Source of the DNA: Candidatus Nomurabacteria bacterium RIFCSPLOWO2_01_FULL_41_18
Lineage (GTDB): Bacteria > Patescibacteriota > Minisyncoccia > Phycocordibacterales > UBA9973
Length of the DNA stretch: 64,000 bases
Direction of reading: 5' to 3'
NCBI GenBank assembly: GCA_001785865.1
Contig: MFUZ01000003.1
Span: 15,048-79,047, forward strand
In this document: positions 215 to 49,829 of the stretch, piece by piece
Layout: the number at the start of each line of letters is the position of its first letter
Numbering within the stretch: position 1 is the first letter of the stretch
The notes under the pieces: model-generated
The model's database searches: none
What the model saw: the letters and a program-made list of their open reading frames with translations, nothing else
What the model was told of the DNA's origin: nothing
Program-made: the position numbers and the translations under genes

Positions 215-276
215 TATTTTTTAGAAAGCCTTGCGCAGTTGGGTAGACGAGCAGTTCGCTCGCAAAGCTTTGCGAG
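215..276 (-). repeat. Copy 1 of a ~62-nt conserved noncoding element; copy 2 lies inverted at 33591-33652
   Basis: The reverse complement of 215-276 aligns base-for-base with 33591-33652. Shared core: AGCGAACTGCTCG..CTGCGCAAGGC.TTCTAAAAAT. It is preceded by a hairpin whose two arms differ between copies but stay complementary. Confidence 0.6.
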
Positions 277-5491: not shown

Positions 5492-7156
5492 ATGGAGCAA
5501 AAAATTAAAAATTGGATAAAAGAAATTTTAAAGATCGAAGGGGATTTTGTTTTAGTGCATCCAAAAGATATAAAAAATGGCGACTATACTTTCATTTCAT
5601 CTTTAGAAAAACCAGCAGAAGATTTAGAAAAATTAAAAAAAAATAAATTGGTAGAAATAGAAAAGATAGAAATGGTAGGTAGATTTATAAATTTATATTT
5701 GTCACGAAAGTTTTTTGCTTCGAGTGTGGAAGAAATTTTAAATCAGGGAGGAAATGTTGGTAAAAATGACTTCTTTACCGGAAAGAAAATAATGATTGAA
5801 TATACCGACCCGAACCCTTTCAAACCTTTTCACATTGGGCATTTGATGAGTAATGCTATAGGTGAATCTATTTCGCGACTTATGGAATTCTCTGGCGCAG
5901 AGACATCACGAGCAAATTACCAGGGCGACTTGGGGCTTCATGTAGCTAAAGCCATATATGGTCTTTTGCAAAATGAGAAATTGCAAGCAAAAATTGGTTC
6001 TCATAATCTGCAAGCAGAAAACATAGGGCGGGCTTATGCCTTCGGTGCTGAAGCATATGAAATCGACAAAAAAGCTAAAAAAGAAATTGATAAAATAAAT
6101 AAAAAACTTTACGACAAAAAAGATAAAAAAATAATTGAGATTTATGATTGGGGTTTCAAGGTGACGATGGATGCCTTCCAAGATTTGTACGAAACTCTTG
6201 GCACAGAATTTGATTTTTATTTCTTGGAGAGTCAGATGGCACCGATTGGAGAACAAATTGTTCGTGCAAATACTGGTAAAATTTTTGAAAAATCTGATAA
6301 CGCCATAGTATTTAAGGCTGAAAAGTATGACCCGAAGCTTCATACCAGAGTTTTCATTACCAGTGAGGGCTTACCTACTTATGAGACCAAAGAGCTTGGC
6401 TTGGCTGAAGAGAAGTTTAAAACAGAACCAAACTTGGATTTGTCCGTTGTTGTCACTGCAAGTGAACAAATGGATTATATGCGTGTTGTTGCCAAAGCCA
6501 TTTCTTTGATAAATCCAGAACATGAGAAAAAAATGAAACACATTACGCATGGCATGATGCGTCTTTCAAGTGGCAAGATGAGTTCTAGGAAGGGGAATGT
6601 TGTTACAGGTGAATCACTTCTGAATGATGTTCGCGATGCAATTTTAGAAAAAATGACGGATAGAGAATTCTCAAATGAAGAAAGAGAGCAAGTGGCTTCT
6701 AGTGTTGCTGTGTCTGCCATAAAATATTCAATATTAAAACAAGGGATTGGTGGAGATATTATTTATGATTTTGAAAATTCTATTTCTTTTGAAGGGGATT
6801 CTGGTCCATATCTGCAATATTCTTTTGCGCGTGCAAATTCAGTTCTAGAAAAAGCAAAGAAAGAAAATATTTTGCCCGACCCGCATGCTTTTCCTGCTGA
6901 AACCTTTGAAGTAGAAAAATTATTATACAAATTTCCCGAAATTGTTTTACGTTCTGCAAAAGAATACGAACCGCATTATATCGCGAATTATTTGATAGAA
7001 GTCGCCCGCGCGTTCAACAGTTTTTATGGCAATAATTTAATTATAGATAAAAAAAATAAAACTTCTTCCTACAAAGTAGCTCTCACTTTTGCTTTTACGT
7101 TTGTAATGAAAAGTGGTTTGCACCTCCTTGGCATCAAAGCTCCAGAGAAGATGTAG
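5492..7156 (+). CDS. argS: arginine--tRNA ligase
   Basis: Class I HIGH motif (PFHIGHLMSNAIGES), ArgRS-like N-terminal domain, an MSSRKG segment and a DALR-type anticodon-binding C-terminus. ATG at 5492, directly after the dut stop. Confidence 0.85.
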   Translation: MEQKIKNWIKEILKIEGDFVLVHPKDIKNGDYTFISSLEKPAEDLEKLKKNKLVEIEKIEMVGRFINLYLSRKFFASSVEEILNQGGNVGKNDFFTGKKIMIEYTDPNPFKPFHIGHLMSNAIGESISRLMEFSGAETSRANYQGDLGLHVAKAIYGLLQNEKLQAKIGSHNLQAENIGRAYAFGAEAYEIDKKAKKEIDKINKKLYDKKDKKIIEIYDWGFKVTMDAFQDLYETLGTEFDFYFLESQMAPIGEQIVRANTGKIFEKSDNAIVFKAEKYDPKLHTRVFITSEGLPTYETKELGLAEEKFKTEPNLDLSVVVTASEQMDYMRVVAKAISLINPEHEKKMKHITHGMMRLSSGKMSSRKGNVVTGESLLNDVRDAILEKMTDREFSNEEREQVASSVAVSAIKYSILKQGIGGDIIYDFENSISFEGDSGPYLQYSFARANSVLEKAKKENILPDPHAFPAETFEVEKLLYKFPEIVLRSAKEYEPHYIANYLIEVARAFNSFYGNNLIIDKKNKTSSYKVALTFAFTFVMKSGLHLLGIKAPEKM

Positions 7157-8119: not shown

Positions 8120-9718
8120 ATGACTCAAGATCAAGCATTGAATATTTTAAAAACTGGTGCTAATGTTTTTCTCACTGGCGAGCCGGGAGCTGGTAAGACG
8201 CACACAATAAATAATTTTGTGAATTATTTGCGTGCTTGTGATGTTGAGCCGGCTATTACAGCTTCTACGGGCATCGCGGCGACGCATATCGGTGGGATGA
8301 CCATTCATTCTTGGAGTGGTATAGGCATCAAAACAAAACTAGATAAATATGATTTGGACAAAATTGCTAGCAGTGAATATGTTGTGAGGCGTGTTAATCG
8401 CACGAGGGTTTTGATTATAGATGAGGTTTCAATGTTGTCGGAGAATATGCTCAACATGATGGATGCTGTTTGTAGAGAAATAAAACAAAATAGCCAGCCG
8501 TTTGGTGGGATACAGATTATTTTGGTTGGTGATTTTTTTCAGTTGCCGCCAATTGTGAAAAAGGACTTTATAGACGAAAAACAGAATTTGCTTATTAAAA
8601 ATATTGTGAAAAATAACAGTTTTGCATATGAATCAGGCGCATGGGAACGTGCACGACTAATTGTTTGTTATCTTTCTGAACAACATCGCCAAGATGATGC
8701 TGATTTTCTGTCTGTACTGGGAGGAATACGAGCCAATAATTTTTCGCAATCACACAGGAATCACATAAATACTAGAAAAATTAATTTAGATAGTCAGCCT
8801 GCGAATATTACAAAACTTTTCTCACACAATGTGGATGTGGACAAAGTAAACAATACTGAACTTGTAAAATTAGACGCAGAAGTAAAATCATTTAAAATGT
8901 CTGGAAGTGGAAATGATAAAATAGTTGAAACGCTCAAGAAAGGATGTTTGTCACCAGAGAATTTAGAACTCAAAATAGGTGCTGTGGTGATGTGTACCAA
9001 AAATAATCCAAAAGAAAGATTTGTGAATGGCACTCTTGGTAAGGTGACGGGCTACGAAGAATTTAGTGGAAACCCGATTATTAAAACCAAGAATGGACGG
9101 AATATTGTTGTTGCGCCTATGGATTGGACAGTGGAAGAGAACGGTAAAATTCGCGCGCAAATAACTCAAGTTCCGCTTCGATTGGCTTGGGCTATCACAG
9201 TGCACAAGAGCCAGGGGATGAGTATGGATGCGGCGGTGATGGATCTCTCGCAAGTGTTTGAATTTGGGCAGGGGTATGTGGCACTTTCCCGAGTGCGCAG
9301 ACTCTCTGGACTTTATTTGCTTGGCATAAATGAGCATGCGCTCAAAGTGCATCCAGAAATTTTGAAAAAAGATATTGATTTTAAAAACAAGTCGCAAGAA
9401 GCTGTGCAAGTTTTCGGTAAAATTCTGGAAAATGATTTAAAAAAGATGCATGATGATTTCGTGGTGGCTTGCGGAGGGAAGGTGGGGAATTTATCCACCC
9501 CGACGCAAGCGTCACCCCTCAAGAGGGGAATTAAAAATGGATTTGCTGAAATCAGAGAGAAACATCCGAACGCATACAGGCCATGGAACAAAGAACAAGA
9601 CGAAGAACTTAGCAAATTATTTATTTCCGGTTTTAAAATACCAGACCTAATGAAAAAATTTGGCAGAAAAAGGGGAGGGATTTCTGCAAGACTTGAAAAG
9701 CTTGGGTTGGTGAAATAA
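8120..9718 (+). CDS. PIF1/RecD-family 5'-3' DNA helicase (AAA_30 + C-terminal helicase domains) with an extra ~90-aa C-terminal tail
   Basis: Walker A (LTGEPGAGKTHT), Walker B (LIIDEVSML), QLPPI, and a C-terminal ITVHKSQGMSMD with GQGYVALSRVR — the PIF1 signature arrangement. Tail: PWNKEQDEELSKLF...GGISARLEKLG. Confidence 0.8.
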   Translation: MTQDQALNILKTGANVFLTGEPGAGKTHTINNFVNYLRACDVEPAITASTGIAATHIGGMTIHSWSGIGIKTKLDKYDLDKIASSEYVVRRVNRTRVLIIDEVSMLSENMLNMMDAVCREIKQNSQPFGGIQIILVGDFFQLPPIVKKDFIDEKQNLLIKNIVKNNSFAYESGAWERARLIVCYLSEQHRQDDADFLSVLGGIRANNFSQSHRNHINTRKINLDSQPANITKLFSHNVDVDKVNNTELVKLDAEVKSFKMSGSGNDKIVETLKKGCLSPENLELKIGAVVMCTKNNPKERFVNGTLGKVTGYEEFSGNPIIKTKNGRNIVVAPMDWTVEENGKIRAQITQVPLRLAWAITVHKSQGMSMDAAVMDLSQVFEFGQGYVALSRVRRLSGLYLLGINEHALKVHPEILKKDIDFKNKSQEAVQVFGKILENDLKKMHDDFVVACGGKVGNLSTPTQASPLKRGIKNGFAEIREKHPNAYRPWNKEQDEELSKLFISGFKIPDLMKKFGRKRGGISARLEKLGLVK

Positions 9719-29082: not shown

Positions 29083-29160
29083 ACCTCACCTCAATCCTCT
29101 CCTGAAAGGAGAGGAGAAATTCAGCCCCTTCCCCTTTCAGGGGAAGGCGGGGGATGAGGT
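29083..29160. terminator. GC-rich nested hairpins between the convergent rpsR and efp genes (bidirectional terminator)
   Basis: CCTCTCC-TGAAA-GGAGAGG and CCTTCCCC-TTTCA-GGGGAAGG, nested inside CCTCACCTCAATCC..GGATGAGGT. Confidence 0.55.
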
Positions 29161-31306: not shown

Positions 31307-33529
31307 TCATATCATGTTTTCTCCACCCTCATTTCTTTGTATCTTTTCCAATACTTCTCTCGGTTTTGCGCCGTCTCCAGGTCCGATCACTCCTTTTTCT
31401 TCCAATTTATCCATCAGCCTCGCTGCTCGGGCGTACCCTAATTTAAGTTTTCTTTGCAGATAAGAGGTCGATGCCTTACCAGCCTCGATGACGCAGGCTC
31501 GCGCTTCCTCGTACATCTCATCGTCATCTTCGGAATCCTCATCATCCAGTGTGCTTTCGAAAATACTTTTATCGGCCGATACTGAACCAGATGTCAGTGT
31601 TATTTCTTCTAGAACTTCGTCTTTATATGCATCTGCCAAATAATTAACGACTTTTTTTACTTCTATTTCTGAAATAAATGCGCTTTGTAGGCGTTCTGGC
31701 TGAGCTTCACCCGAAGAATATAACATGTCACCAGCACCCAAAAGTTTTTCTGCTCCACCAGCATCCAAAATAGTTCTCGAATCCACTTGAGAAGATACTT
31801 TCAAGGCAACACGGGCCGGAATGTTTGCTTTAATGAGTCCGGTAATGATATTTACTTCCGGGCGCTGGGTGGAAAGTATAAGGTGGATACCTACAGCTCG
31901 GGACATTTGTGCCAAACGGACAATGGCTGACTCAAGCTCTCTAGGATATGAACTCATTATGTCTGCTAATTCATCTATTATAATGACAATATATGGCAAT
32001 CGGTCTACACCCACTTCTTCATCTATTCCCTCACTGTTTTTTACCATTTTCTTTTGGTTTTTATCAAAAACATTACTATGATAACTCTCTATGTCTCGAA
32101 CACTTTCGGCTTCCAGTATGTCATAACGACGGTCCATTTCCTTTGCTGCCCATTTTAATGCAAAGATAGTTTTCTTTGCTTCAGTGATAACGGGGGTTAA
32201 TAAATGGGGGATATTGTTATAAAGGGTAAGTTCTACTCGTTTTGGGTCTATTAAAATAAGTTTTAAATCGTCTGGACCATTTCTGTATAAGAGGGAAGTA
32301 ATAATAGAGTGGATAGTTACTGATTTTCCAGATCCAGTCGTGCCTGCGACGAGGCAGTGCGGCATTTTCGCTAGGTTTCCAAAAACCGCTTTACCAGCGA
32401 TGTTTCGACCGAGTGCGATGGTAAGGGCTTTCGCAGAATTTTGGTATTTGTCATCTCCGAGAAGGGTAGCGAGGCCGACTATTGATTTTGATTTGTTTGG
32501 AATTTCAATACCCACTAGCGATTTGCCTGGAATCGGCGCTTCTATTCTGATGGGATGTGCCGCGAGCGACAGAGCCAAGTCGTTTTGTAGTCCTACGATG
32601 CGGGAGAGTTTTACTCCTTCAGCTGGTTTCAATGCATAACGAGTGACAGTCGGGCCGATTGTTATTTCATCCATTTCCACTTCAATGCCAAAGTTTTGAA
32701 GCGTGCGCTTGATTATGTTCGCATTAGCTTTGATGTCTCCCGTATTCGGTTTGCCTTTATCTTCTTCAAGGAGAGCAAGGGGAGGGGGAACGTAATTGGT
32801 ATGGAGGTTGGTCCTAGGCTTCAGTTTCTTGATTTCTATCTCATCTTCGTCCTCTTTCTTTTTTCCTACTCCCAATGCTTTTTTTATCTTTTCTCCCGTG
32901 CTCTCTTCTTCCGCATCTTCGTCGTTCTCTTCCTCATCTTTTGGCAGGGAAGCTACCAGAAGTTTTTCTCCCTCTATTAGTGTTTCTTTCGTTTCACTCG
33001 AATTGTCTGCAGTTTTTTTGTTAGCTCGCAGGTTCCACATCTTTTTGATAAAAGGTATCGGGTTTAGTTCGGTATCAAACAAGACAAGGATTGAAATTAT
33101 TAAAATAGCTCCCAGGAAGATGGTGCTCGCATAGACATCAAATAGAGCGACTAAGGGCGTAGACAAGACCTCACCCAAAATTCCTCCAAAGGGTCCGCCG
33201 GAGATGATGTCTATAATCCCTAAACTAGAGAGCAGGAACAAGATTGCACTCGCGATACTCCTCCATCCGATATCCGGAGTCTTGGATCGGAGAAATGAAA
33301 TTCCGAGCATGATAAAAAGAATAGGGAGAAGGATATAGCCGACACCGAGCAGAATATCGAATTTTTCGTAAACGAATACACCCGCTTTTCCGGTGATGTC
33401 AAAATATGACATTAAAAAAAATAATGCCAGAACAAAAAAAACTATTGCCATGATCCCGTGTTTTGTTTGACTCTTTAATCCAAAATTTTCATTTCCAAAA
33501 TCCTTCTTCTTATTTCCATTTTTCGCCAT
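31307..33529 (-). CDS. ftsK: DNA translocase FtsK/SpoIIIE
   Basis: N-terminal TM helices, an acidic linker, an ATPase domain with Walker A (GTTGSGKSV), and a gamma-domain winged helix (ARACVIEAGKASTSYLQRKLKLGYARAARLMDKLEEKG). Confidence 0.9.
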   Translation of the reverse strand: MAKNGNKKKDFGNENFGLKSQTKHGIMAIVFFVLALFFLMSYFDITGKAGVFVYEKFDILLGVGYILLPILFIMLGISFLRSKTPDIGWRSIASAILFLLSSLGIIDIISGGPFGGILGEVLSTPLVALFDVYASTIFLGAILIISILVLFDTELNPIPFIKKMWNLRANKKTADNSSETKETLIEGEKLLVASLPKDEEENDEDAEEESTGEKIKKALGVGKKKEDEDEIEIKKLKPRTNLHTNYVPPPLALLEEDKGKPNTGDIKANANIIKRTLQNFGIEVEMDEITIGPTVTRYALKPAEGVKLSRIVGLQNDLALSLAAHPIRIEAPIPGKSLVGIEIPNKSKSIVGLATLLGDDKYQNSAKALTIALGRNIAGKAVFGNLAKMPHCLVAGTTGSGKSVTIHSIITSLLYRNGPDDLKLILIDPKRVELTLYNNIPHLLTPVITEAKKTIFALKWAAKEMDRRYDILEAESVRDIESYHSNVFDKNQKKMVKNSEGIDEEVGVDRLPYIVIIIDELADIMSSYPRELESAIVRLAQMSRAVGIHLILSTQRPEVNIITGLIKANIPARVALKVSSQVDSRTILDAGGAEKLLGAGDMLYSSGEAQPERLQSAFISEIEVKKVVNYLADAYKDEVLEEITLTSGSVSADKSIFESTLDDEDSEDDDEMYEEARACVIEAGKASTSYLQRKLKLGYARAARLMDKLEEKGVIGPGDGAKPREVLEKIQRNEGGENMI

Positions 33530-33590
33530 GAAAGTATTTTAACACGGGCTAGAAGTTTCAGCTAGAATCAATTTTTATAATGCAATCTAT

Positions 33591-33652
33591 CTGGCGTTGC
33601 TACGCCAGCGAACTGCTCGCCTCGTCAGCCTGCGCAAGGCATTCTAAAAATT
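33591..33652 (+). repeat. Copy 2 of the ~62-nt conserved noncoding element, in the divergent ftsK / 33733 intergenic region
   Basis: See 215-276. Here the 5' hairpin is CTGGCG-TTGCTA-CGCCAG, against CTCGCAA-AGCT-TTGCGAG in copy 1. Confidence 0.6.
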
Positions 33653-33732
33653 ATTCTGGCTTACACCTTGCCCATCCTTGCTTTTTTCCTTGTCCGATAT
33701 ATAATGGACACACATAACCTACTTACAAGGAC

Positions 33733-34620
33733 ATGAATAAAAACATAAAAGACACTCAATCGTCCATATCCACCCAGTCTTCTAATTTTGGAGAACAGGG
33801 AGCTCTCGTGTCCTTTAGCAAGACCTACCAGCCTGCTATTGTAAATAAGGCCGGCAAGCTGATCACAGCATTGTACATGGTAACGGACGTAATGGACAAA
33901 GAAGAACCGATAAAAAATAAGTTAAGGACATTGGGTACAGAAATCATATCAGACATGCATTCAGTGCCATCGGATATAGATAGTAAAATTACGGAAATCA
34001 TGTCCTTTTTGAATATAGCTACAGCCATGAGCTTTATTTCAGAAATGAATTGCTCTATTCTCAAAAAAGAATTTTCAGTCTTACAACAATCCATAAAAGA
34101 ATCAGCTCAAATGAAGCCTGCCTGGCTCGAGGATTTTTTGGAAGAAGAATTTCCTCCCCTTCTTGATAAGGAGGGGAATGAGGGGAGGTTTCTGGAGAAT
34201 TCACCTCACCCCAACCCTCTCCTTATTAAGCCTGCCCGCCTGGAGCGTTCGGGCGGGGAGAGGGGGAGTCCAATTTCTAAAGGACATGTTAGAATTGGTG
34301 TCCAAAAGAGAGACGCCTTTTTAAAAATTATAAAGGACATGTCCGATAGAAGTATAGTTTCACAAGGTGTTCACACAGGATCTGATTTTGGTGTATTAAA
34401 GAAACAAAGACGCAACGACATCATCAATATGGTGAAGGTTGTTGGCGGGAGTGCTACTATAACGGACATCAGGGACCAAGTTCAGATGGCTCCAGCCCAG
34501 GCCGGCCTGCTCGTTTCTTGCAGTGAAAAAACGTTGCAAAGAGAGTTGATGTCCATGACGAAGGACGGTCTATTGAAGAAGACAGGGGAAAAAAGGTGGA
34601 GCCGGTATTTCATCAAATAA
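33733..34620 (+). CDS. hypothetical protein with a C-terminal winged-helix domain; a GC-rich hairpin repeat is embedded in frame
   Basis: C-terminus ATITDIRDQV...SEKTLQRELMSMTKDGLLKKTGEKRWSRYFIK resembles Fic/RecG-type wHTH tails. Nucleotides 34141-34290 (EEFPPLLDKEGNEGRFLENSPHPNPLLIKPARLERSGGERGSP) are made of CCCCTT..AAGGGG-type hairpins. Confidence 0.45.
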   Translation: MNKNIKDTQSSISTQSSNFGEQGALVSFSKTYQPAIVNKAGKLITALYMVTDVMDKEEPIKNKLRTLGTEIISDMHSVPSDIDSKITEIMSFLNIATAMSFISEMNCSILKKEFSVLQQSIKESAQMKPAWLEDFLEEEFPPLLDKEGNEGRFLENSPHPNPLLIKPARLERSGGERGSPISKGHVRIGVQKRDAFLKIIKDMSDRSIVSQGVHTGSDFGVLKKQRRNDIINMVKVVGGSATITDIRDQVQMAPAQAGLLVSCSEKTLQRELMSMTKDGLLKKTGEKRWSRYFIK

Positions 34621-35127
34621 CCTCTTAAATTCAACCCTCCCATCCTCCCCTTATCAGGGGAGATAGAATGTCGAATCCCCTTAATAAGGGGATTTAGGGG
34701 GTTGTATCTTTTACATTTGCATTTTGCTCAAATTGTGATAATATAGCTTTGTGGGTTTTATTCGCTTAAAAGGCGAGTTATCCACATAATATCTTGCTCT
34801 ATCTTGGAGCTATGTATTATAATAATATTGTGTTTATGTGGCGCGCATTTTATGCGTATCATGTATTCACAAATTATATTTGTTTTCACTTTGATTTTTG
34901 TTTGAGATTTCGTCGAAAAGATTTCAAGCAATGCGGAGAGAAAATAAATGCCCATTGAAAACCGAATAGCTATGTTTTTAATGGTTTAGTTTACATCTGT
35001 TCGTTATTTTAAATCCGTTGCATTATAAATTATTAATAGTTATTAACGGATGAGGAATAATGATAGAAAAAATTGCGCTTTTAGTTTTGTCGAAACTTAT
35101 TAATAGCGTAAAAATTAGAAAAATTAT

Positions 35128-48899: not shown

Positions 48900-49829
48900 T
48901 CAGTTATTTATAAAATTCTCGCACGTTTTCCGTAACGCTTCCTGTAATGGTGTAATATCGCGCGGATTAGGCAGGGGATTTTCCCAATTTATTTCATGAA
49001 TATTTTTCTTGAAGTCTTCTGTGGAGTAAGCCCTTAGGTAATCAAGAAGCCCGCCGAATCTCGGATCGTTTAAATCTTTATATACAAATATGACAGGCGT
49101 GCCAAACGCCAAGCAAGGAAGTGCGCAGTGGAGCCTTGAAGTTACCACAAGTTTTGCTCCAGCGTACGTTTTGAGCAGTTCACGAGCCTTCTTAAATTTA
49201 TCTCCTTCTTGGATCTTGTTTAGAAAAAACCATGAGAGTGTGTTAAGCCCTAATTTTCTTATAAAAGATTTCAAAGGGTGAGGGATAAGAGCAGATGCTT
49301 TTTTCGTATATTGAGAGTATCCCCAATGGTTGGTGTATATAGAGTGGTCTCGTATTTCTTTTGGCAATACTTTTTCAGCCTCTTTTTCAAGATCAGCGAT
49401 TACTATATTGTTGTGTTTGTCTACGGATGGCTTTTTGAGTGTCAAAGTCAGGCATCCTGAAAAGTATGCTTGCACTCCTTTATCTTCAAGTATTTTTTGC
49501 GTATGCGTGTCTCTACAGCCAATAGGTTCATGTTTCTTGAAGTAGTCTATTGATTTTGGTGAAGTAAAGTTTTCAACGGCGCACTGTGCAATATGGAACG
49601 AGAGGAACAGCGGGTCTATGATGTCCGATGGCGGCCAATTGTGCGGTTCATGGCTAAACCATCCATTCATGATAATTCTTATCTTGTTTTTGCTTTTTAC
49701 TTTGTTGAGGGTACCTGCATCAAGGCGTAGGTCAACGCGGGGAAGAAATTGTAATGTCGCCACGCTTTGTATTTCATTTCCCACATTTCCAGTTTTGTGG
49801 GATAATAATCCATATATGAATTTTTCCAT
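48900..49829 (-). CDS. polysaccharide pyruvyl transferase-family protein (tentative)
   Basis: N-terminal GNVGNEIQ, as in the PS_pyruv_trans GN.GD..I motif. ~300-aa size and locus context fit. Confidence 0.4.
   Translation of the reverse strand: MEKFIYGLLSHKTGNVGNEIQSVATLQFLPRVDLRLDAGTLNKVKSKNKIRIIMNGWFSHEPHNWPPSDIIDPLFLSFHIAQCAVENFTSPKSIDYFKKHEPIGCRDTHTQKILEDKGVQAYFSGCLTLTLKKPSVDKHNNIVIADLEKEAEKVLPKEIRDHSIYTNHWGYSQYTKKASALIPHPLKSFIRKLGLNTLSWFFLNKIQEGDKFKKARELLKTYAGAKLVVTSRLHCALPCLAFGTPVIFVYKDLNDPRFGGLLDYLRAYSTEDFKKNIHEINWENPLPNPRDITPLQEALRKTCENFINN

Follow-up and report, generated by a model that had tools for sequence, protein, structure and literature searches.

A dispersed family of palindromic units with a conserved three-way junction in Nomurabacteria and Paceibacterota, probably a DNA repeat

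Introduction

Patescibacteria (the candidate phyla radiation) are usually described as having streamlined, repeat-poor genomes. In a stretch of 64,000 nt from Candidatus Nomurabacteria bacterium RIFCSPLOWO2_01_FULL_41_18 (contig MFUZ01000003.1, positions 15,048 to 79,047; this whole stretch is called the window), a preliminary description made from the sequence alone noted a non-coding element of about 62 nt that is present twice, inverted and 33 kb apart, and carries a 5' hairpin that differs in sequence between the copies and keeps its pairing. This raises the question of what kind of element it is: a functional RNA, a protein-binding stem-loop or something else. The analysis assigns the two loci, with a probability of roughly 60%, to a dispersed palindromic intergenic DNA repeat family that is specific to Nomurabacteria/Paceibacterota and of the same kind as REP/BIME, ERIC and Correia elements and the Rickettsia palindromic elements (RPE). 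The family is new for Patescibacteria and is distinguished by a conserved three-way-junction apex and by interchangeable arm and core modules.

Results

Two long hairpins in the window

Both copies were found where they had been described. The core motif AGCGAACTGCTCG matches exactly at 248-260 (minus strand) and 33607-33619 (plus strand), and the motif CTGCGCAAGGCWTTCTAAAAA at 218-238 (minus) and 33630-33650 (plus), with 0.00 matches expected from 100 shuffles. The 5' hairpins, CTCGCAAAGCTTTGCGAG at 259-276 and CTGGCGTTGCTACGCCAG at 33591-33608, differ in sequence and are intact in pairing in both copies, and the reported excess in GC was borne out as well (the reported spans have 0.48 and 0.57, the window as a whole 0.39 and the nearest flanks 0.29-0.35). 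An additional block, TTTTTATAAWGCAATCTATCT, is common to both copies (exact at 275-295, minus, and at 33572-33592, plus; 0.02 matches expected). TTTTTATAAWGC is complementary to GCWTTCTAAAAA, with W being A-T in one copy and T-A in the other; this swap is a second compensatory change, which had been missed.

The copies can be aligned over about 85 nt and are divergent beyond. Since pairing in each of them runs on outward into flanks that are dissimilar between the copies, each copy is a long hairpin. The element as such therefore stands, but its length of about 62 nt does not, as the real units measure about 120 nt (197-316, minus) and about 98 nt (33562-33659, plus). Both fold into a three-way junction that bears the small hairpins P2 and P3 and is closed off by an imperfect outer stem of some length. 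The spacer of 9 to 11 nt (N9-11) in the preliminary description is present but is itself a hairpin: together with its conserved shoulders it makes up P3. The parts of the two copies are listed below, with subfamilies and helix statistics taken from the sections that follow.

Copy 1:
197-316, minus: whole palindromic unit with subfamily A arms (model match 195-319, 116.8 bits; pairing extent)
309-316, minus: outermost stem P0, 5' strand TAAAACTC, pairing with AAGTTTTA and including the sod stop codon at 314-316
303-308, minus: internal loop, 5' side TTTCTT, opposite TGCGAC at 205-210; conserved in subfamily A and unpaired in predicted folds
284-302, minus: P1, 5' strand GGCATACTTTTTATAAAGC, partner at 211-229 (helix 1: 92% of cells paired in 85 copies)
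277-283, minus: junction J1/2, AATCTAT, 90-100% conserved outside the search pattern
259-276, minus: hairpin P2, CTCGCAAAGCTTTGCGAG (98.3% paired; double changes in 6 of 7 pairs)
254-258, minus: junction J2/3, CGAAC, from the alignment; positions forced by the search pattern
232-253, minus: hairpin P3, TGCTCGTCTACCCAACTGCGCA, holding N9-11 and weakened by one C.A mismatch (helix 3 of the family: 97.7% paired)
211-229, minus: P1, 3' strand GCTTTCTAAAAAATACGCC, from pairing
197-210, minus: 3' side of the internal loop (TGCGAC, 205-210) and P0, 3' strand AAGTTTTA (197-204), from alignment and folds

Copy 2:
33562-33659, plus: whole unit with different arms, CTAGAATCAATTTTTATAATGC / GCATTCTAAAAATTATTCTGG (model match 33548-33673, 112.3 bits)
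33562-33583, plus: P1, 5' strand, from the fold
33584-33590, plus: junction J1/2, AATCTAT, from sequence and alignment
33591-33608, plus: hairpin P2, CTGGCGTTGCTACGCCAG, from sequence and helix statistics
33609-33613, plus: junction J2/3, CGAAC, from sequence and alignment
33614-33636, plus: hairpin P3, TGCTCGCCTCGTCAGCCTGCGCA, with one C.C mismatch, from sequence and helix statistics
33639-33659, plus: P1, 3' strand, from the fold

The gene context had been given correctly. Copy 1 begins at the stop codon of the Fe/Mn superoxide dismutase gene (sod, 314-907, minus), and copy 2 lies between the start of ftsK (31307-33529, minus) and a divergent gene at 33733 encoding 295 amino acids. Copy 2 has a predicted folding energy of -30.4 kcal/mol (z -3.77) and is 96.8% identical over 94 nt to locus L004 (L with a number denotes a locus in the retrieved set and P with a number an aminopeptidase homologue). 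No third copy was detected by the covariance model in the 64 kb, the next distinct locus scoring 16 bits versus 116.8 and 112.3. A weak model match at 49360-49486 lies inside an open reading frame of 309 amino acids and was rejected as chance.

A large family in low-GC Patescibacteria

One genome per species was scanned with the pattern GCGAACTGCTCG-N6-14-CTGCGCAAGG, which matched at least 118 loci. Of these, 36 were set aside as belonging to high-GC organisms, where the GC-rich pattern lies inside coding sequence by chance. The remaining loci, at least 82 in at least 51 assemblies, are all from low-GC Patescibacteria labelled Nomurabacteria, Paceibacterota or Minisyncoccia, and carry at least 89 copies with the same flanking blocks. 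Several assemblies contain from three to at least seven copies each (e.g., at least seven in JAZKJK01). A metagenome scan anchored on the 5' half only gave at least 119 further matching loci, mainly in groundwater and sediment samples, so that the total across genomes and metagenomes exceeds 200 copies.

That only two copies are present in the window might suggest that the similarity is due to chance or that one copy arose by simple local duplication in this genome. However, with 0.00-0.02 matches expected in shuffles and more than 200 copies in other genomes, the probability of this explanation is negligible. The preliminary description had named as refuting its claim the existence of these two copies only, or further copies lacking structural conservation; the copies found are numerous and, as described below, keep their pairing.

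Searches against Rfam 15 gave no match that reached the gathering score, neither in the window nor in 13 loci, and only noise at E<=10 around both copies. No match to the unit was obtained in viral contigs, and a phage origin was rejected for this reason. In the literature on repeats, RNA motifs, transposable elements of the miniature inverted-repeat type (MITEs) and palindromes of Nomurabacteria, Parcubacteria, Patescibacteria or the candidate phyla radiation, no description was found.

The three-way junction is conserved through compensatory changes

The structural alignment of 85 distinct copies is nearly gap-free. The unit has the order outer stem P1, AAUCUAU, hairpin P2, CGAAC, hairpin P3, AG and back to P1, with the P1 stem continuing outward past the core. 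RNAalifold recovers the same helices unguided, and single sequences fold to the same shape. The proportion of paired cells is 95.3%; shuffles give 77.4%, with none of 500 attaining the observed figure, and slid partners give 30-49%. The covariation score is 0.392, compared with 0.089 in shuffles and 0.043-0.084 with slid partners, and changes on both sides were found in 16 of the 28 named pairs. In P3, 97.7% of the cells are paired and the three apical pairs covary.

As 22 positions belong to the search pattern, they are invariant by construction. However, GCAATCTATCT is 90-100% conserved though it lies outside the pattern, and of the metagenome copies retrieved with the 5' anchor, 47 carry the short 3' half unchanged and about 16 carry it with a single base different. 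With pairing extended outward, the full palindrome has a median length of 119 nt (range 85-168) and arms of about 33 nt.

P2 is a stem of 7 bp with the loop AGCU or UGCU. Among 203 distinct copies 55 stem variants occur, of which 98% of the pairs are Watson-Crick. At the DNA level the P2 loop is nearly always AGCT (113 copies) or TGCT (66), and many P2 hairpins, being closed by an A-T pair, are fully palindromic and include AAGCTT.

The claim that the element is not a decaying duplicate was thus upheld: pairing is preserved through many double changes in more than 200 copies, and nucleotide identity to relatives is 87-97% in the unit versus 75-80% in the neighbouring protein-coding DNA.

A number of known identities were tried and rejected. 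A spurious miRNA match only mirrored the outer stem, and no tRNA or tmRNA was found in the window. Comparison of the junction strands with the hammerhead consensus CUGANGA/GAAA, by eye on both strands, gave no match, and the antisense-strand sequence CTGACGAG is merely one P3 variant. The hairpin AGCCT-GCGCA-AGGCT, which looks like a CGTC-tagged REP, was discarded because covariation links the P3 variants to the 5' strand instead of to AGGCT.

The pairing constraint is symmetric between the strands

In an RNA helix under selection, G.U pairs are tolerated whereas A.C pairs are not, so that among the imperfect pairs of the transcribed strand wobbles are expected to be far commoner. In P2 (n=1421 pairs), 1392 pairs are Watson-Crick, 8 are G.U, 11 are A.C and 10 are other combinations; for the outer stems the numbers are 2619, 88, 113 and 328, respectively. 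On the transcribed strand, counted over all stems of copies between co-directional genes, 27 G.U pairs were found versus 35 A.C pairs. Because G.U is no commoner than A.C, even on the transcribed strand, the pairing constraint is symmetric between the strands. This is the result that a DNA hairpin or cruciform gives, and an element folding whichever way it is read would give the same.

These counts bear directly on the view that the unit is a cis-acting structured RNA in mRNA 3' ends or intercistronic regions, which is bound by a protein or RNase or serves as a specialised terminator, and in which the RNA fold is selected. Such an RNA would agree with the very strong covariation in three helices, with junction bases that are 90-100% conserved without being forced, with a conservation of the unit exceeding that of neighbouring genes, and with variation in P3 length as in many RNA families. 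The position at gene ends fits as well, since 67 of 80 copies have the 3' end of one or more genes facing them, the stem contains stop codons, A/T runs surround the subfamily A units, and the downstream genes often have their own -10-like boxes directly after the unit. However, G.U is not in excess over A.C, overall or on the transcribed strand, both orientations occur at the same genes, so that the junction would be read as its complement in a third of the copies, and copies are also located between divergent promoters and in coding frame. No Rfam family matches either. We therefore regard a cis-acting RNA as unlikely, and the reading of the covariation as the mark of a functional RNA was not supported. 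The alternative mentioned along with it, a protein-binding stem-loop, may stand if it is taken as a folded-DNA site.

Genomic placement and turnover

Among the 218 copies 217 are intergenic, and the gap is usually filled by the unit. The adjoining genes start or end within a few bases of the stem, and stop codons are often inside it. In convergent pairs the stop positions are mirror images of each other (-10/-10, -13/-13 and -14/-14 nt). At the gap between the tkt-like and kinase-like genes (L040, L078, L085, L110) the palindrome extends 10-14 nt into both convergent genes, so that two unrelated proteins share their final codons and stop (e.g., K-K-I-stop on either side in L110). The gene arrangement, determined for 80 copies, is co-directional with the unit in 28 and against it in 14, convergent in 25 and divergent in 13.

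Clustering of the neighbouring genes placed the unit in the same orthologous gap of several species, in either orientation relative to the genes:

sod gap: one orientation in the window and L036, the opposite in L020, L077 and L117
atpD-atpC gap: one orientation in L009 and L019, the opposite in L092
RNR-PduO gap: one orientation in L041, L051 and L102, the opposite in L070
ftsK gap: one orientation in the window and L060, the opposite in L111
tkt-kinase gap: one orientation in L040 and L085, the opposite in L078 and L110

In the flipped copies the whole unit is reversed, asymmetric arms included. Other gaps differ in the presence of the unit. The S20-glutaredoxin gap measures -1 to 22 nt in species that lack the unit and is about 120 nt longer in those that have it, and the S15-NYN gap is without the unit in some species, where other hairpins occupy the site. 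A site can also carry different subfamilies in related species.

The occurrence of the whole unit in both orientations at the same gap in different species could also be explained by an inverton, i.e., a site-specific recombination site with the arms as recombinase sites and a core that flips to control the neighbours, and Correia elements are reported to invert (PMC10969869). However, 21 near-identical strain pairs share orientation and sequence, the metagenome scan for the flipped junction of copy 1 gave no match, no core promoter is evident and no recombinase gene recurs beside the units. A recombination site of this kind is thus highly improbable; programmed inversion and a hypervariable P2 were dropped on the same strain pairs and the same empty scan. 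A sigma-70 promoter inside the unit was likewise rejected, as no consistent -35/-10 spacing was seen.

Among the recurrent neighbour genes no transposase-like, RAYT (Y1 transposase) or recombinase gene recurs beside the copies. In about 1.3 Mb of loci no parent insertion sequence with the same ends was seen by a regular-expression search, which was noisy, and for a composite element with cargo between subfamily A arms this search was too noisy to show any.

An in-frame copy in an aminopeptidase

A canonical unit (L030:4552-4677) lies in frame within an M1 aminopeptidase of 906 amino acids, which aligns over its full length with the solved puromycin-sensitive aminopeptidase. The homologues P0002-P0005 (69-77% identity) lack exactly those ~45 residues, and the closest homologue, P0001 (L238, ~630-810), carries at this codon position, likewise in frame, a reversed unit that belongs to another core subfamily. 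This pattern of presence, absence and replacement indicates that units arrive or are exchanged at the site as DNA. The peptides encoded by the units gave no match to an NCBIfam model at E<=10, RPE models included.

Subfamilies and interchangeable modules

The arms form the subfamilies A, B and C, which are conserved across copies and genomes. In subfamily A, to which copy 1 of the window belongs, they read AAAACTC-TTTCTT-GGCATAC... / ...GTACGCC-TGCGAC-GAGTTTT and contain a conserved 6x6 internal loop. The outermost stem P0 of this subfamily covaries (AAATTC/GAATTT, AAGCTC/GAGCTT, CCCCTC/GAGGGG), and A- and T-runs bracket the units (AAAACTC...GAGTTTT).

The covariance model also detects members missed by the exact pattern, namely a long-P3 form and at least three other cores. 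The long-P3 form (164 nt; L069:5963-6126, L009:7183-7346, L107:2568-2731 and about 55 metagenome loci) has an extended, AT-rich hairpin with covariation in its apical stem as well (AAATAG/CTATTT, AAATGG/CCATTT, AGAAAG/CTTTCT). It is about as common as the short-P3 form (about 55 versus about 63 of 118 in the 5'-anchored metagenome sample). The other cores keep the arms, the base of P3 and the overall three-way shape. In sister families the same arms and three-way shape are combined with other junction and P2 sequences, e.g., GGTACGGATTTTTTGAAGCTTAAAAAATCC:

Sister-family loci: L024:1543-1668, L115:3996-4121, L071:7474-7598, L070:426-551
Further sister-family loci: L090:3691-3817, L093:6051-6176, L070:6435-6560

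The family is thus modular, as one arm type occurs with different cores and one core with different arms. The variant unit at L070 426-551 lies 12 nt from a tmRNA gene (L070 12-414). Truncated half-units are present in L154 and L162, which are from near-identical strains, and consist of the left arm, P2 and the start of P3 followed by unrelated sequence. An apparent insertion into the P3 loop of L153 (2723-3141) proved on comparison with L215 and L234 to be a 400-nt local duplication of upstream sequence with 15-nt overlaps, joined at the apical loop of the long P3, and may reflect either a true rearrangement at the hairpin or an error of assembly.

A second palindromic family, which is GC-rich and has the form CCCCT..AGGGG, gave 5 matches in the window versus 0.18 expected:

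34632-34702, and also 29125-29143 and 9515-9528: GC-rich second family, pattern match

The GC-rich copy that follows the 295-aa gene has a fold in which two hairpins are closed by an outer stem, and in this it shares the architecture of the element studied. Units related to it fill the S15-NYN gap in L072 and L083, and one is in frame in the aminopeptidase of L030 (L030 5570-5630).

Polarity along the chromosome

The strand on which the unit was written in the preliminary description is the locally G-rich strand in 63 of 89 copies (63:26), and in 43 versus 11 where the skew is strong; these counts are non-independent, since many copies are orthologous, and the skew is entangled with gene-strand bias. 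The bias persists at sites to which transcription of the neighbours lends no direction, with ratios of 12:1 in divergent and 18:7 in convergent gaps, and the same majority polarity is found in 8 of 9 orthologous sets. Copy 2 of the window follows the majority and copy 1 does not. The polarity is suggestive of an effect tied to replication.

This could mean that the unit is a DNA site selected by the host, folded or in cruciform, bound by a chromosomal protein, spaced along the chromosome and polar with respect to replication. As binding partner a topoisomerase or gyrase (as at BIMEs), a nucleoid protein or a replication/priming factor would be candidates. The strand-symmetric pairing, the placement independent of the orientation of transcription, the strand bias (including that in divergent gaps, where no crossing transcript is expected), the uniform majority polarity of orthologous sets, the retention of the same gaps across species with a conserved core, and the spacing of about one unit per 32 kb in the window all agree with such a site. 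However, the same gaps are empty of the unit in related species, the copies are clustered irregularly (two units in 5 kb in L168, three in 16 kb in JBAZVG01), several different cores occur on one architecture, no candidate protein was found and the polarity is merely about 3:1. A host-selected site is hence considered decidedly unlikely.

Comparison with known repeat systems

Repeats of the REP, ERIC, Correia and RPE type are intergenic, lie 3' of genes, are occasionally intragenic, are transcribed and invert (PMC3733652, PMC10969869). Since the unit resembles them in placement, fold and occasional intragenic insertion, it was assigned to their kind.

Rickettsia palindromic elements lie in intergenic positions and, as the habit for which they became known, also in frame within unrelated housekeeping genes (PMC10969869). 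Like the units described here, they are palindromes of ~100-150 bp in small-genome, host-dependent bacteria, share sites across species and are without obvious transposase or target duplication, and an in-frame genic copy was found here too. However, the sequences are unrelated, only 1 of 218 copies is intragenic here, and the conserved three-way-junction apex is a feature of the present family.

ERIC sequences are imperfect palindromes of ~127 bp, intergenic, mostly transcribed, in either orientation, with tens to hundreds of copies and occasional intragenic ones (PMC10969869). They affect mRNA stability at gene 3' ends (PMC10969869; see also PMC2759123). The unit shares with them the similar size, the imperfect intergenic palindrome, both orientations and the occasional intragenic copy, but belongs to another phylum, has another sequence and shows no TA-type duplication. 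We know of no three-way-junction core or interchangeable arm and core modules in ERIC.

Correia elements (NEMIS) of Neisseria are intergenic, 100-200 bp long, with long inverted-repeat ends, are co-transcribed into hairpins cut by RNase III and can invert (PMC10969869). The intergenic location, the long inverted-repeat ends and the long hairpin are common to both, whereas promoters, an IHF site and treatment as MITEs with terminal repeats are features of the Correia elements.

REP, BIME and REPIN sequences are extragenic palindromes forming DNA hairpins, mostly located after genes in same-direction or convergent arrangement and sometimes intragenic, and pairs of them can adopt larger folds; they have been proposed to act in termination, mRNA stabilisation and supercoiling (PMC3733652). 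In difference to the unit of ~120 nt with three helices, a REP is a single palindrome of 20-40 bp with a stem of 8-9 bp. It also has an unpaired terminal GTAG/CGTC tag, whereas CGTC is confined here to the short P3, where it forms the loop, and the UACCC and long-P3 forms lack it.

SPRITE repeats are dispersed, shaped like rho-independent terminators and located at gene ends (PMC10969869). The unit is likewise a dispersed stem-loop at gene ends, but its hairpin is far larger than a canonical terminator and is not called by a consensus scan.

Compared with MITEs, the unit is small, non-coding and multi-copy and has terminal inverted repeats shared within subfamilies. Direct target-site duplications were not seen, because the flanks are inverted complements, such as TG...CA (L028, L063), TTCAAA...TTTGAA (L019) and GCATAA...TTATGC (L046). 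TA flanks many subfamily A copies, but a TA target-site duplication was rejected since TG...CA and the other inverted flanks show pairing instead.

Discussion

In a dispersed DNA repeat, the explanation preferred here, the pairing constraint would act on the DNA. In the form of a folded single strand or a cruciform, the unit would be propagated, exchanged or recognised by some enzyme or by template-directed hairpin repair, and the conserved junction bases would be what this propagation or exchange process recognises. The preference of about 3:1 for the G-rich (leading) strand would fit an action on single-stranded DNA at the replication fork. An inserted unit would then be co-transcribed with its neighbours as a very stable stem-loop, beginning at or inside stop codons and with A- and T-runs around it. 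Judged from the sequences, it probably acts as a two-way terminator or as a hairpin protecting the 3' end, or is at least tolerated there, because stop codons lie in the stem, A- and T-runs surround subfamily A units and other hairpins occupy the gaps without the unit.

Several observations weigh against this explanation. Locus- or subfamily-specific signatures are common to the species at one gap (AAAATTC/GAATTTT at S15-NYN), which, together with the conservation of the unit above coding DNA, shows some copies to be both old and conserved. Both findings point to units that have long been inherited vertically at their sites under purifying selection, unlike a purely selfish decaying repeat. 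The 21 strain-level pairs, whose flanks are 94-100% identical, have identical units in the same orientation. Only a single copy among 218 is intragenic, 13 copies are between divergent genes, and some are inside likely operons (atpD-atpC). No transposase, other partner protein or autonomous parent element was found in the loci, no direct target duplications accompany the inverted complements outside the arms, and the consensus terminator scan calls the site of neither window copy. The interdependence of the polarity counts, given above, also has to be set on this side. Because of the long residence, the conservation above coding DNA and the lack of transposase, target duplication and parent, the host-selected DNA site and the cis-acting RNA were both kept as alternatives.

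A more far-reaching idea, which we put forward tentatively and hold to be improbable, is that purifying selection preserves the three-way junction as a recognition module, which would be read in folded form by a putative protein. The reader may be a new single-strand-DNA mobilisation system (HUH/Y1-like or other) targeting gene-end hairpins, or else may be a termination, RNA-processing or chromosome-organisation factor specific to Patescibacteria. If this were true, the units and the GC-rich family of the same architecture would be a functional system typical of the radiation and not junk.

Patescibacteria are, to our knowledge, not yet genetically tractable. A repeat that is found in at least 51 species, is conserved above the surrounding genes and can lie in frame within an enzyme provides a usable handle. 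It marks the ends of genes and the borders of transcription units and offers a natural test of DNA-hairpin maintenance, and if a partner protein exists it would be a pointer to a lineage-specific nucleic-acid-handling system. On the practical side, assemblies break at such units, and screens that rely on covariation will take their clean covariation for that of RNA genes. The comparison of G.U with A.C pairs by direction of transcription is a cheap way of separating DNA repeats from RNA genes.

Further observations at the loci

Positions 1-194 of the window, beyond copy 1, are non-coding, without a long open reading frame, and are cut by the window edge. Together with the unit they show 79% identity with L036 over 347 nt and may be a promoter or leader or another element.

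Directly after copy 2 a conserved sigma-70-like promoter, TTGCTT-16-TATAAT, is present for the 295-aa gene (window 33660-33732; L060 ~6780-6860), and a TGnTAAAAT box is located ~10 nt before the ftsK start. At other loci several downstream genes have -10 boxes a few bases before the ATG, which suggests very short leaders.

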